Below, one piece after another: positions 189-6,389 of a stretch of 6,389 nt of DNA. This stretch comes from a virus (lineage: Duplodnaviria; Heunggongvirae; Uroviricota; Caudoviricetes). Position 1 is the stretch's first letter, and the number at the start of each line of letters is the position of its first letter. Made by a program: the position numbers and the translations under genes. Where the stretch lies: IMG/VR virus record IMGVR_UViG_2706794662_000016; one strand, 5' to 3'. The notes under the pieces were generated by a model that saw only the letters and a list, made by a program, of their open reading frames with translations, was not told the DNA's origin and did no database searches.

Positions 189-642
189 CTTAGCAGCACC
201 TAAGCAACAATTGACTAACAGATTCGGTAGAGTCTATCTCATAGGTCAACTTCATAAACTCAGAGCTAAGTTACCTTGAAAGATTCTACCAAGAACTACA
301 CAGGTGTTATTTAGTCTGACTGTGAAGGGATATTTAACGGGAGAAGAGATACGATATAACCCGAAGGGAGAGTATCATCTTAACAATTATCTTAAGAATA
401 AAAACTGAAAAACTCTTAACAGATAACCACCTAGAAAGAAGGGAACGATAAGACCAGAGGTAGTGACCTGTTAAACAGGCTGTTTCAAAGTCTCTTAAAT
501 AAGTAAGGTCATGTGAACAATCTTACCATTTTGTCAATGCTTTTGTCTTTGACCTAAATCAATAAAATGTATCGTTTGATATGCTTTTAAACAAAATAGC
601 TAAAAAATCTTTTTTTAGAGGGGCGCTTCGCTTGGGGTCACT

Positions 643-930
643 ATGAATGATTTTTCTCTCGCTAAGAGAGCGCTTACAGAGGTCTTTCAAATCTCAATAG
701 CCAGCCGAGGAACACAGGAAACCGAGGGAAGAAAAACTATTGTGATTACCTTGAACAAGGTCTGTAAAGGTCGTTTAAGAGGTCGGTTAAGAAAGGAGCT
801 TCCCTCTCTGGGGTTATCGCTCTTCTCCCGATTAGTGGGGCGGTTAAGAGGGCTTGAAGTTATCTGTGAAGGTACTGGACAGCCTTATATATTGGGTGAT
901 TACAACTCGTTGAAAAATAAGCATTTTTAG
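643..930 (+). CDS. Doubtful ORF (95 aa) overlapping DNA repeats; likely non-coding
   Basis: Six-frame ORF with ATG, but no convincing SD or promoter upstream. Its repetitive peptide (GRLRGRLR...GRLRG) simply mirrors tandem 12-bp DNA repeats, and its 3' end lies inside direct repeat R1. Confidence 0.2.
   Translation: MNDFSLAKRALTEVFQISIASRGTQETEGRKTIVITLNKVCKGRLRGRLRKELPSLGLSLFSRLVGRLRGLEVICEGTGQPYILGDYNSLKNKHF
769..850. repeat. Iteron-like 12-mers GG(T)CG(T/G)TTAAGA: tandem pair 769-792, third copy 839-850
   Basis: Direct reading: ggtcgtttaaga / ggtcggttaaga / ggcggttaagag. A related ggtcgtttaa occurs at 1422-1431 inside repeat element A. Confidence 0.6.
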
Positions 931-1042
931 AAGTTACTGTTAAGGTTGCAGAGTTGTCTGTGAAGAGACTTGTCAGTTCTCTATATATGGCTAATTACAA
1001 CTTATTGAAAAATAAGAACTTTTAGAAATTACTGTCAGAGAG
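859..1042. repeat. Two tandem direct repeats of about 90 bp (R1 859-945, R2 953-1042), roughly 80% identical by eye
   Basis: Both copies share gtt(a/g)tctgtgaag ... tatatat(t)gg ... attacaac ... ttgaaaaataag ... ttttagaa(g/a)ttactgt, aligned by eye. Confidence 0.7.
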
Positions 1043-1117
1043 GTGAATGCTTGATAGATACAGCTTTCCGGTTCTGTCAAGCTATTTTTTAATGGATAGC
1101 ACAAAATGCTAAAGACA

Positions 1118-2953: not shown

Positions 2954-2990
2954 TCCGAGACTTTAAGAGAAATTAGAAAAACAGCTTATC

Positions 2991-3111
2991 AGACGCTCTC
3001 AATCGCATTCTAACGCAAAAAACTATCTTATTTTAGGGTGGGTAATACCACTGTACAGGCTACCCCTGAAAAAGACTGTTTAGCTCGTTACAGAGCGATT
3101 GAGGAGGTCTG
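2991..3111 (+). repeat. Bipartite repeat element, copy B: 5' arm 2991-3021, 3' arm 3078-3111, internal inverted repeat CTCAATCGC (2998-3006) / GCGATTGAG (3095-3103)
   Basis: Intergenic, with no ORF across it. Arms match copy A; the core contains palindrome CTGTACAG and a CCCCTGAAAAAG segment. Confidence 0.65.
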
Positions 3112-3544: not shown

Positions 3545-3573
3545 TTGACAAACAACCTTGAGCATGACATAAT
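3545..3573 (+). promoter_or_regulatory. Sigma70-type promoter P2 (TTGACA - 17 nt - TGaCATAAT)
   Basis: Consensus -35 at 3545-3550, 17-nt spacer, extended -10 at 3565-3573. Followed by TGTATATATGG, which also follows P1. Confidence 0.6.
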
Positions 3574-3742
3574 TGTATATATGGGGGAGAGCAATTCTCT
3601 CTTATTTTTTCTTTCAATAATCCGATGGATGGATATTCTGAGTTGGAAAGGTGCAATGCTTTTCGTCCTAGCCTTTCAGGTTGGTCTGAGAGGCTATCTC
3701 AAAAAGTCTTTGTTCATTCATTATTGAATCCTTTACAGCTTT

Positions 3743-3970: not shown

Positions 3971-4681
3971 ATGACAAACGATTTATATATTAACGGTAAA
4001 AAGGTTGATAGCTTCGGAGACTGGTCACCACAGGGTGAACATCCGCTACATACTATTCAGCGTCAAGAGCATGACAAGCGCATTGAGCTTGAGCAAGAGC
4101 TAAAGATGTCACCAAAGGTAATTTCCTTTGTGTCTCCTGAGCCTCAAGAAATGCCTGATATCTGCAAAACTGAAGCACTATTTGAGCTTGAGCGTGAATA
4201 TTACCCAGCTTTAAAATCACAGCGTCTTAGACTTGATGTCGCTTACGATGCTGTTAAGAACTTCGAAGAAACCTCGAAACCTTCAGAATATGATATTGCT
4301 TACGAGATTAAGTCAAACCCGTTTATCTATTATGAAGGAAACTTTAATGATGGTTTTGGTACAGCGATTGAAGACGTTCCTAAAGTTCTTCAAAGTATCC
4401 CTGAAGGGTTCCGGTTAATTGATGTCAGACAAGCATTAAGGGGTTCTGGTCAATTTATTCTGATGACTGATAAAACAGATGAAGAGATTCTTCAGTTAGC
4501 TGAAGCTAATTTGACTAAGCATTATTCCGGTAAACTGGATAAGTTAAAGCAAAAGCTTAAAAAAGAACTTGATACTATGAAAGAACTTGTTAGTGAATAT
4601 GAGTCGCAGAAGAAGATTGCTTTGATGGCTGATATTGAGCAGTTAACGAAGATTTCTCAGAAGTATAGCAAGGCTGTTTGA
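3971..4681 (+). CDS. Hypothetical protein (236 aa)
   Basis: ATG with SD GAGG 8 nt upstream; long ORF. No family recognised. Confidence 0.8.
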   Translation: MTNDLYINGKKVDSFGDWSPQGEHPLHTIQRQEHDKRIELEQELKMSPKVISFVSPEPQEMPDICKTEALFELEREYYPALKSQRLRLDVAYDAVKNFEETSKPSEYDIAYEIKSNPFIYYEGNFNDGFGTAIEDVPKVLQSIPEGFRLIDVRQALRGSGQFILMTDKTDEEILQLAEANLTKHYSGKLDKLKQKLKKELDTMKELVSEYESQKKIALMADIEQLTKISQKYSKAV

Positions 4682-5069: not shown

Positions 5070-6347
5070 ATGGCACAATTTAAAGTTGATGATTTTCTGA
5101 TTGAGTTAAGTTTTAACTCTCAGAAAGTTTTAAAAGGCTTGGAAAAAGCCGAGAAACAAACGATGCAGGTAGCATCACGAATTGAGAAGCGATTGAATAA
5201 GTCGTTTAGAGTTAATCCTACGCCTTTAAATGATTCTCTCAAACTAATGGAAAGAAATGTCGATAAAACTGTTTCCAAGATTGAGCAGCGTCTTAAAAAC
5301 ACTAGAGCGTTTAAGATTAAAACTGAAATTGAGGATACTTTAAAGCCACTTAGACAACCAAGACAGCCACGAATTAGCGGAAGCAGAGCAATCACAGCAG
5401 CTTACTCAGCGAATATGAGCAAGCTTCGTGACTTTAATCCTATGCTTGAGAAGTATTTTAAAAGCCAGTATTACAGCTTAAGCAGTAAATCCAAGACACT
5501 TGGAAACGAAACTTTTAATCGTGAGTTAGCAAAGTTAAATCAGTCTCTTCGTGAAACACTTTCTAAGTTTAACAAGACCACCAGCAAAAATAATCACAGT
5601 GAAAATGCTTCAAATAGTCTGGATGTATTAGCTACGAGTGCAATCAAAGCAGGTACAGCCATTTATAGTTTTCAGACAGCCTTAGAAGCTTACAGGCGGA
5701 TTATGGAGGTTGGTCTGAAAAAAGAAGCATCACAACGAGCGGCACAATTCGTTTTAGGTGATGAAGGTGCTAAACGAGCTACAGAATTTGTTAAGAATCT
5801 TGCTGATAGTAGTGGTGTAGACCAGATTGAAACATTAAGCAGTTTTGCTAAGTTTTCCGCTGGTGCTGGTGATATGAATGCAGACCAGAAAGAATCCTTA
5901 TTTTCTAATGTGATTGGTACATCCAGATTAATGGGGCTAAGCACCGATGAAATTAACGGGATTTTAAAAGCTTTCGAGCAGATGGCATCTAAAGGAAAGA
6001 TTCAGGCTGAAGAGCTACGCGGTCAATTAGGTGACAGAATGGCAGGTGCTTTTCAGTTATTTGCCAGAAGTCTTGGGATGACTACGGAAGAATTAGACAA
6101 GGCCATGAAAGACGGTAAGATTCTTTCTAAAGATGTTCTTCCTAAAGTATCCGCTGAAATGGGAAGGATGATTGATAAAGCTGGTGGATGGGAAAAGATT
6201 ATTAACTCTACTCAGACGCAGTTAGGCCGCTTAAGTAATTCATGGAATAATAATCTGGCCTTAATGTTCGATGGTTCACAGGAAGGTTTAACAGACTTTA
6301 CAAGGTCACTGACTAATTTACTTAATTCACTAAATAGCTGCGCTTAA
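5070..6347 (+). CDS. Tape-measure-domain protein (425 aa), lambda gpH-like N-terminal region; possibly a truncated remnant
   Basis: SD AAAGAGGTG 10 nt upstream. The motif EELRGQLGDRMAGAFQLFARSLGMTTEELDKAMKDGKILSKDVLP matches the conserved phage tape-measure core as I recall it, and the N-terminus MAQFKVDDFLIELSF resembles lambda gpH MAEPVGDLVVDLSL. Domain assignment is from memory. Confidence 0.8.
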   Translation: MAQFKVDDFLIELSFNSQKVLKGLEKAEKQTMQVASRIEKRLNKSFRVNPTPLNDSLKLMERNVDKTVSKIEQRLKNTRAFKIKTEIEDTLKPLRQPRQPRISGSRAITAAYSANMSKLRDFNPMLEKYFKSQYYSLSSKSKTLGNETFNRELAKLNQSLRETLSKFNKTTSKNNHSENASNSLDVLATSAIKAGTAIYSFQTALEAYRRIMEVGLKKEASQRAAQFVLGDEGAKRATEFVKNLADSSGVDQIETLSSFAKFSAGAGDMNADQKESLFSNVIGTSRLMGLSTDEINGILKAFEQMASKGKIQAEELRGQLGDRMAGAFQLFARSLGMTTEELDKAMKDGKILSKDVLPKVSAEMGRMIDKAGGWEKIINSTQTQLGRLSNSWNNNLALMFDGSQEGLTDFTRSLTNLLNSLNSCA

Positions 6348-6389
6348 TACCGCTACACTTTTGCCAGCCCATGTTTGCCTCCGGGGAAT

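Follow-up and report, generated by a model that had tools for sequence, protein, structure and literature searches.

The 6,389-nucleotide stretch of IMG/VR record IMGVR_UViG_2706794662_000016 (here called the window, meaning the whole stretch that we analysed) contains, close to its left end, a non-coding region with two kinds of direct repeats, short 12-mers and a tandem pair of 95-bp units. The region belongs to a phage-like element that is found as an island in enterobacterial chromosomes. Part of its non-coding DNA is homologous to the direct terminal repeat (DTR) of Felix O1-like phages, and two genes of the element are homologous to tail genes of the same phages.

Repeats in a conserved non-coding region

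The features of the left part of the window are as follows, with conservation given as mean pairwise identity in 20-nt windows across 20 distinct family sequences:

1-189, unstranded: nested pieces of IS3-family insertion sequences (IS), with 100% matches to sequences that carry the annotation of an IS3-family transposase or an integrase core domain.
190-1116, plus strand: non-coding, cis-acting region, truncated on the left in the window, with no conserved open reading frame (ORF) on either strand.
221-245, minus strand: copy of a 27-bp element of phage CHB7, where two copies lie immediately beyond the terminal repeat (88% over 25-26 nt).
377-422, plus strand: TCTTAAC/TCTTAAG repeats, the inverted form of GTTAAGA, with a 12-bp period (Tandem Repeats Finder at 377-399, and motif positions).
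421-490, plus strand: homologue of the middle of the Felixounavirus DTR (82-95% identity, E values down to 5e-7 in 2.3 Gb of phage DNA).
496-635, unstranded: most conserved block, largely A+T-rich (identity 0.84-1.00, mostly at least 0.91).
755-792, plus strand: 'iteron-like' array of CTGTAAAG and two tandem 12-mers, GGTCGTTTAAGA at 769-780 and GGTCGGTTAAGA at 781-792 (Tandem Repeats Finder and pattern match).
795-823, unstranded: small hairpin GGAGC..CCC..GGG..GCTCT between the 12-mers (8 pairs, identity 0.88-0.89).
838-849, plus strand: third 12-mer, GGGCGGTTAAGA, less conserved, of which relatives retain just TAAGA(A/G)G (identity 0.67 over 836-855).
855-949, plus strand: 95-bp unit 1 (repeat searches, and the consensus of 29 distinct units).
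950-1044, plus strand: 95-bp unit 2 (repeat searches and unit consensus).
1016-1115, unstranded: second highly conserved block, from the end of unit 2 to the terminator (identity 0.91-0.98).
1117-1162, unstranded: hairpin with a T run, a terminator for the plus strand (-21.3 and -19.3 kcal/mol on the two strands).

The original prediction, made from the sequence of the window, had described three 12-mers, two of them in tandem, and two tandem repeats of ~90 bp. The 12-mers were confirmed: GGNCGKTTAAGA matches exactly at 769-780, 781-792 and 838-849 where 0.13 matches are expected by chance, 200 dinucleotide-preserving shuffles all gave fewer matches, and Tandem Repeats Finder reports the tandem pair as a 12-bp repeat (768-792, 2.1 copies, 92% matches). 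The larger repeats are likewise two real tandem copies, but their unit is 95 bp and not ~90 bp (858-1035, 1.9 copies, 81% matches, 3% indels, score 240); a second repeat search recovered the same pairs (893-940 with 988-1035 at 85%, and 858-892 with 952-986 at 74%). Unit 1 contains a CTGTGAAG..CAG quasi-palindrome, TATATAT, ATTACAACT, TTGAAAAATAAG and TTACTGTTAAG.

The coding capacity of the repeat region had been called doubtful and its only ORF ascribed to the repeats themselves, and this assessment was borne out. The sole ORF (643-930, 95 aa) contains a stretch, RLRGRLRK, that is the translation of the 12-mers; none of 17 relatives has the ORF in this form, not even one with 96% identity (L013), and it has no Pfam or PHROG match. 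No coding sequence is annotated in the non-coding region of any relative examined. A protein-coding reading of the repeat region was rejected, given that the reading frame is lost among relatives and is never annotated.

We compared the repeats across 33 family sequences and found them kept throughout this family of phage-like elements. The short array is present in all 33, with 2-4 copies at a period of 12 or 13 bp and GTTAAGA(A/G)G as its constant core. Two copies at a 12-bp period are found in the lineage of the window, and two, three (L005) or four (L007) copies at a 13-bp period (GGTTAAGAAGGTC) in other lineages. Two 95-bp units occur in 21 of the 33 sequences, one in 12, and three in none. 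The differences between unit 1 and unit 2 fall at positions that are conserved between lineages, indicating that the duplication is old. Single-unit relatives are chimeras that join the 5' part of unit 1 to the 3' part of unit 2, and they arise in lineages whose flanks otherwise equal those of two-unit forms, which points to repeated origin by deletion and thus suggests that a single 95-bp unit suffices for whatever role the unit has. Even in a Citrobacter element whose non-coding region is just 69% identical, two GGTTAAGAA repeats and the small hairpin are retained, together with one 95-bp unit whose first half is conserved. Within the family, the part that holds the 12-mers and the hairpin has an identity of 0.79-0.89. 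The hairpin at 1117-1162 forms the right end of the non-coding region and also lies 3' of a leftward small ORF; its stem is conserved, with a 17-nt loop insertion in the copy of the window.

The family alignment begins at about position 190, and the IS pieces at 1-189 form the left boundary of the element in the window; at the right edge, the last ~60 bases (about 6326-6389) match DNA that lies beside a transposase gene elsewhere. The element is thus cut at both sides by IS DNA, and it lacks the genes for the Dit-like protein and the serine recombinase as well as the final part of the tape measure gene. Between the IS pieces the DNA is ~86-91% identical to a 10-11.5 kb island of Escherichia coli that occupies several chromosomal sites (yciI/tonB, ymdF/wrbA, and the inside of a DUF72 gene). 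Intact islands carry, from left to right, a variable accessory gene, ~1.6 kb of gene-free DNA, a rightward operon of small proteins, a 688-725-aa tape measure, a Dit-like 'baseplate' protein and, at the end, a leftward large serine recombinase (506-547 aa). A 185-aa protein encoded in the window is 100% identical to a Shigella sonnei protein found on at least 1000 contigs, which marks the window as a Shigella-type remnant.

Positions 560-1170 of the window are matched in 432 of 5,426 complete E. coli genomes (~8%), and beyond E. coli there are relatives in Escherichia albertii, in Citrobacter and on 17 gut metagenome contigs. All 842 of the 842 E. coli matches are chromosomal and a plasmid collection gave no match to 560-1170, so we rejected a plasmid origin or partition site; searches among the proteins of the element also found no Par-like (parA/parB-type) proteins.

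Sequences shared with Felix O1-like phages

The tape measure protein of the element has its closest matches in Felix O1-like (Ounavirinae) phages of ~86 kb. It is 33% identical to the protein of Felixounavirus Pr103Blw, with the first 27 residues nearly identical and the C-terminal tail conserved. The Dit-like protein is 69% identical (E value 5e-123) to the product of the phage gene that immediately follows the tape measure gene, and its central part is nearly identical to the phage homologue. In the window the truncated tape measure gene lies at 5070-6332, and in the 96%-identical relative the tail-gene region lies at 13533-16652. The other proteins of the element gave nothing below an E value of 0.6 against a full Felixounavirus genome (tblastn). 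The similarities of the tape measure and Dit-like proteins suggest that the element may build altered tails for a helper phage or interfere with the assembly of its tails.

At the DNA level, we searched 50,697 phage records (2.3 Gb) with the non-coding region, and only Felix O1-like phages matched, via positions 421-490. This segment, whose identity within the element family is 0.81-0.95, constitutes the strongest link to a helper phage; its counterpart is conserved in 255 phage records and falls inside the annotated DTR in those with mapped ends. Annotated DTRs measure 581 bp in Pr103Blw and 618 bp in UAB_69, and a length of 613 bp has been reported for Ro111lw (PMC6454146); by the helper genome end we mean this DTR of 581-618 bp together with the flanking non-coding DNA. 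When a profile of the region was searched against an 88,421-bp phage genome using nhmmer, only the two DTR copies matched (E value 4e-5).

The phage DTR and its non-coding flanks are composed of (C/T)TGTTA(A/G)(A/G) and CTGTNAAG repeats with a period of ~11 bp, and three copies in the opposite orientation (TCTTAAC) stand at the extreme left end of the DTR. The terminal kilobases of the phage genome contain YTGTTARR 18 times (first kilobase) and 10 times (last kilobase), and CTGTNAAG 10 and 5 times, respectively, compared to 0-3 per kb for each in the rest of the genome. The window contains 11 sites of CTGTNAAG versus 1.14 expected, of which 7 lie within 320-1081 and 10 are non-coding. The short array itself (755-792) aligns with positions 211-250 of the Pr103Blw DTR (80% over 40 nt), which hold a tandem TTTAAGAG pair directly adjoining the phage segment matched by window positions 433-474. 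Furthermore, three Kolesnikvirus phages of Erwinia, Panisse and two relatives, have a four-copy GTTAAGA array at the margin of their terminal non-coding region, and positions 775-796 are identical at 22 of 22 nt to part of it. The arrays with a 13-bp period (L005, L007) align with phage arrays outside the DTR (E value 7e-4 in a 4.6-kb database) and also, in reverse, with the terminal TCTTAAC array. Positions 377-422 are similar to the three TCTTAAC copies at the far left of the DTR, with 90% identity over 21 nt to Pr103Blw DTR positions 16-35 (E value 0.049), and positions 221-245 match the two CHB7 copies (phage repeat family D14) with E values of 0.004 and 0.014 in the 4.6-kb database. Similarity to the terminal region of the helper within family-conserved non-coding DNA is therefore found at 421-490, and for the 12-mers at the level of motifs only.

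A 26-30-nt palindrome, AGGGATTGGTAACAATACCAATTAG, is also present in the terminal regions of CHB7 and UAB_69 (E values 7e-10 and 2.5e-9), at differing positions. In the element family it forms an insert flanked by TTAG, located at differing TTAAG sites among members in the region equivalent to 780-850, with a short form in five members (L007, L015, L018, L033 and L034) and a long form in two (L014 and L037). The insert behaves like a tiny mobile or recombining module that is common to phage and element.

Explanations for the repeats

Since the sequence relatives of the 12-mers are arrays in or beside the DTR of Felix O1-like phages, mimicry of the genome-end or packaging region of a helper is our first choice among the explanations considered. 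According to this explanation the element would be a satellite of Felix O1-like phages, and its repeats an array bound by a protein of the helper type that serves packaging or the formation of genome ends; we favour it tentatively and judge it to fall just short of an even call. The ~1-kb region would then be a condensed and rearranged copy of the genome-end region of the helper, with which it shares the 421-490 core segment, the GTTAAGA/CTGTNAAG motif family, tandem GTTAAGA(G/A)G arrays, opposite-orientation TCTTAAC repeats, the 27-mer and, in some members, the small 26-30-nt palindrome, all of which occur in the DTR and flanks of Felixounavirus, Suspvirus and Kolesnikvirus. The 12-mers would be protein-binding repeats, and so, probably, would the CTGTGAAG/ACTGTTAAG boundaries of the 95-bp units. 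The serine recombinase of the island, its boundaries and its Felixounavirus-type tape measure and Dit genes fit an element whose dependence on a helper is putative.

Upon infection by the helper, the island would excise through its own serine recombinase, and a helper protein that normally sits on the phased repeats at the phage concatemer junction would also bind the array of the satellite. Once bound, the satellite DNA could be recognised, cut and packaged, and the same mimicry could recruit replication functions of the helper as well. A single 95-bp unit would be enough for this, with the second being an old and dispensable duplication.

Several observations weigh against mimicry of a helper genome end. 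The repeat region itself has no significant phage match, with best E values of 0.35-0.49 in the profile search and 0.3 in the whole phage database, and its likeness to phage DNA is one of motifs only. Compared to the phage DTR region, the satellite region is shorter and rearranged, with 2-4 array copies versus ~25, a repeat period of 12-13 bp versus ~11 bp, and a core that is mostly one base off the repeats of E. coli phages (GGTTAAGA versus TGTTAAGA). Neither the profile search nor the whole-database search found a phage counterpart for the 95-bp units beyond their CTGTGAAG and ACTGTTAAG ends, or any equivalent of the invariant 496-635 block. The best-conserved blocks (496-635 and 1016-1115) lie outside the repeat region or at its edge. 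The copy in the window is a fixed, dead relic, with its tape measure gene truncated and its recombinase gone. Of 20 contigs from metagenomes or Logan, 17 were mapped to the element and 9 were examined for overlapping ends, and we found none that was virion-derived, circular or DTR-bearing, which is weak negative evidence; the satellite contigs of ~11-12 kb run into chromosomal flanks at their ends and show no terminal overlap. Lastly, our literature search found no publication on a satellite of Felix O1-like phages, and the Felix O1 genome paper, which inferred short terminal repeats and identified a large but not a small terminase, is silent on terminal repeat arrays (PMC3185647).

The original prediction had proposed that such repeats mark a replication origin, a partition site or an array for binding a regulator on a plasmid or phage-like element. 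Part of this stands, in that the region is non-coding and conserved and its repeats have the look of protein-binding arrays, given a copy number of 2-4 and further occurrences of the motif in other non-coding stretches of the element; the idea of a plasmid or partition locus does not, and neither a DnaA box nor a recognisable initiator gene was found. A replication origin of the satellite is nevertheless the main rival to packaging mimicry, although we regard it as rather unlikely. The 12-mers would serve as iterons for an initiator, which could come from the helper or be a satellite protein that has escaped recognition, for example the 185-aa or 236-aa product, and the duplex would open at A+T-rich DNA at about 556-615 and inside the 95-bp units. 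Consistent with this are the short tandem direct repeats of variable copy number, the larger direct repeats of which one is sufficient, and the A+T-rich DNA that the original prediction had proposed to look for: GC content is 0.33 at 401-600 and 901-1100, and positions 556-575 are invariant in the family. SaPI origins consist of iterons that flank A+T-rich DNA. Replication of P4, which copies the packaging site of its helper, needs short iterons, and its crr is composed of two direct ~120-bp repeats that carry initiator sites, one of which suffices; the 95-bp unit, present in one or two copies, resembles crr and could act like it. P4 differs in that it encodes the primase-helicase that acts as initiator on the iterons, integrates by a tyrosine integrase and relies on a temperate helper, and nothing of this kind is seen here. 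Each 95-bp unit also has an IHF-like TTTCAAnnnnTTG site, though the number of such sites is not above chance, and the origin of PLE adjoins its pac mimic within one non-coding region (10.1101/2024.04.22.590561).

On the other side, searches of Pfam, PHROGs, NCBIfam and PDB sequences recognised no initiator, primase, helicase or terminase-like protein among the proteins of the element, and homologue searches returned only close matches that were unannotated or dubiously named ('transposase', with no domain); an AlphaFold2 model of the 185-aa protein was too poor for a structure search (pLDDT 51). No DnaA box lies near the repeats, the only match in the window with one mismatch being at 5258. 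Classical iterons are 17-22 bp long and usually number at least three, whereas most family members have two 12-13-mers, and the known relatives of the motif are at phage genome ends, where no origin has been mapped. Packaging mimicry and an origin would be compatible if the terminal region of the helper also serves replication.

A role in transcriptional control seems to us quite improbable. In this case the repeats would be operators or promoter modules for regulators of the element or for a helper factor, switching the island on after infection. CTGTNAAG also occurs in other non-coding leaders of the element (3731, 3846 and 5000), every 95-bp unit has a 19-bp quasi-palindrome and a weak leftward promoter-like site (943-914 and 1038-1009, 9 of 12 consensus matches), and close by on the right of the region are strong divergent promoters and a long palindrome that is repeated. 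Nevertheless, such promoter-like sites are weak, with 16 of them found in 4 kb where 10.6 are expected, there is no consistently placed target gene because the accessory gene on the left varies in identity and orientation, and in the phages the motif is confined to genome ends rather than occurring at promoters genome-wide. Less probable still is that the repeats are functionless, decayed DNA, formed by slippage or left over from phage DNA. The copy of the window is indeed a remnant bounded by insertion sequences, and the repeat copy numbers vary; yet conservation of the array, of the hairpin and of the unit cores extends from E. coli as far as the Citrobacter element with its 69%-identical non-coding region, and the unit-specific signature differences kept across lineages indicate an old duplication under constraint.

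A structured non-coding RNA, in which the repeats and variable hairpin inserts would form stems, is very improbable: some relatives have hairpin insertions at fixed places, the small hairpin at 795-823 has a compensatory change (one A:U to G:C), and a terminator hairpin lies downstream at 1117-1162, but that change is confined to one lineage (3 sequences), the promoter search gave no convincing candidate, and the hairpin insert also occurs in phage terminal DNA at positions that differ by phage, which fits a DNA element better. A known RNA family or conserved RNA structure was rejected, as Rfam gave zero matches to the non-coding region even at E values up to 1 and the RNAalifold consensus of 16 distinct sequences was weak (11 pairs, -6.5 kcal/mol over 100-190 nt).

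Other features of the element lie around this region. The accessory slot to its left (L001, L013-L022 and L046-L048) is a cargo hotspot whose content differs by member, holding a small serine recombinase or invertase-like gene, an AP2/ERF-like gene, an HNH endonuclease or a Dam methylase; in some family members the Dam gene sits inside the non-coding region. An invertible segment acted on by the neighbouring small serine recombinase was rejected, as BLAST segments were collinear in every relative with no inversion. To the right, a conserved 58-aa hydrophobic ORF (MVNLPPELG...) is located on the minus strand at 1171-1347; no family match was found for it, and several relatives have it annotated as a hypothetical protein of 58-62 aa. 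Its predicted leftward promoter (1555-1526, 11 of 12 consensus matches) has a TG, and its 3' side is the 1117-1162 hairpin. Two copies of a long quasi-palindromic element, ~90% similar, occur at 1356-1459, between the strong leftward promoter and the small leftward ORF, and at 2985-3111, directly upstream of a 107-aa gene (-50.7 kcal/mol, z -6); this two-copy quasi-palindrome looks like a shared operator or leader structure.

Strong sigma-70-like promoters, both with a TG, are found at 1562-1590 (TTGACA-17-TAATAT) and 3545-3573 (TTGACA-17-CATAAT). Both are followed by TGTATATATRG, and TATATAT(T/A)TGG is also present in each 95-bp unit; the 71% inverted resemblance of the units to the promoter at 1562-1590 was within the range of chance. 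Directly after the promoter at 3545-3573 come a terminator-like hairpin (3581-3605) and an untranslated leader of 380 nt. The 236-aa protein encoded at 3971-4681 is named 'transposase' in thousands of records, but it has no Pfam, NCBIfam, PHROG or PDB match, and the name appears unsupported given the absence of any family match.

Known satellites and the biology of Felix O1-like phages

Mimicry of packaging sites has been shown as a strategy for P4, SaPIbov5 and PLE, and in PLE the pac site was found as a BLAST match of non-coding DNA to the pac of ICP1 and is required for transduction (10.1101/2024.04.22.590561). The PLE of Vibrio cholerae resembles the element described here in being an integrated island with a large serine recombinase and a virulent myovirus as helper (ICP1 for PLE, a putative helper for the present element), and in having a short, BLAST-detectable match to the packaging region of the helper that is non-coding, conserved in the family and situated beside repeat-bearing DNA. 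The two differ in that the putative helper here uses short exact DTRs whereas ICP1 uses headful pac packaging, and in that the present element is about half the size of PLE, lacks a recognisable RepA and includes two tail genes, for a tape measure and a Dit-like protein. Mimicry is experimentally supported in PLE, whereas here it is proposed from sequence. Short-repeat arrays, SRL and SRR, flank the terminal repeat of T7, with a role that is only partly understood. These arrays are similar to those discussed here in being phased short motifs at the ends of a genome packaged with short DTRs, although the sequence and the phage family are unrelated.

Satellites that copy the packaging site of a helper are thus already known. 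What would be new is the group of helpers, namely virulent enterobacterial myoviruses related to Felix O1, the type of site that is copied, a DTR built of repeats instead of cos or pac, and the pairing of a DTR mimic with tape measure and Dit proteins encoded by the satellite. It is possible, though we incline somewhat to doubt so full a picture, that the window is the relic of an undescribed and widespread family of enterobacterial satellites that exploit these phages, and that its repeats belong to a mimic of a DTR packaging region, which would be the first known in a satellite and would act together with the satellite's tape measure and Dit proteins, these serving to build the tails of the helper or to poison them.

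Felix O1-like phages are classic phages for typing, biocontrol and therapy in Salmonella and E. coli. If the mimicry is real, an island that copies their end repeats and two of their tail genes would constitute a new helper-satellite pair in a tractable host, and could explain some failures of Felix O1-like phages on natural isolates. It would also provide a first handle on how these phages, which have no recognised small terminase, locate and cut their DTRs, with the shared short motifs being the obvious candidates for a code by which the terminal repeats are recognised.

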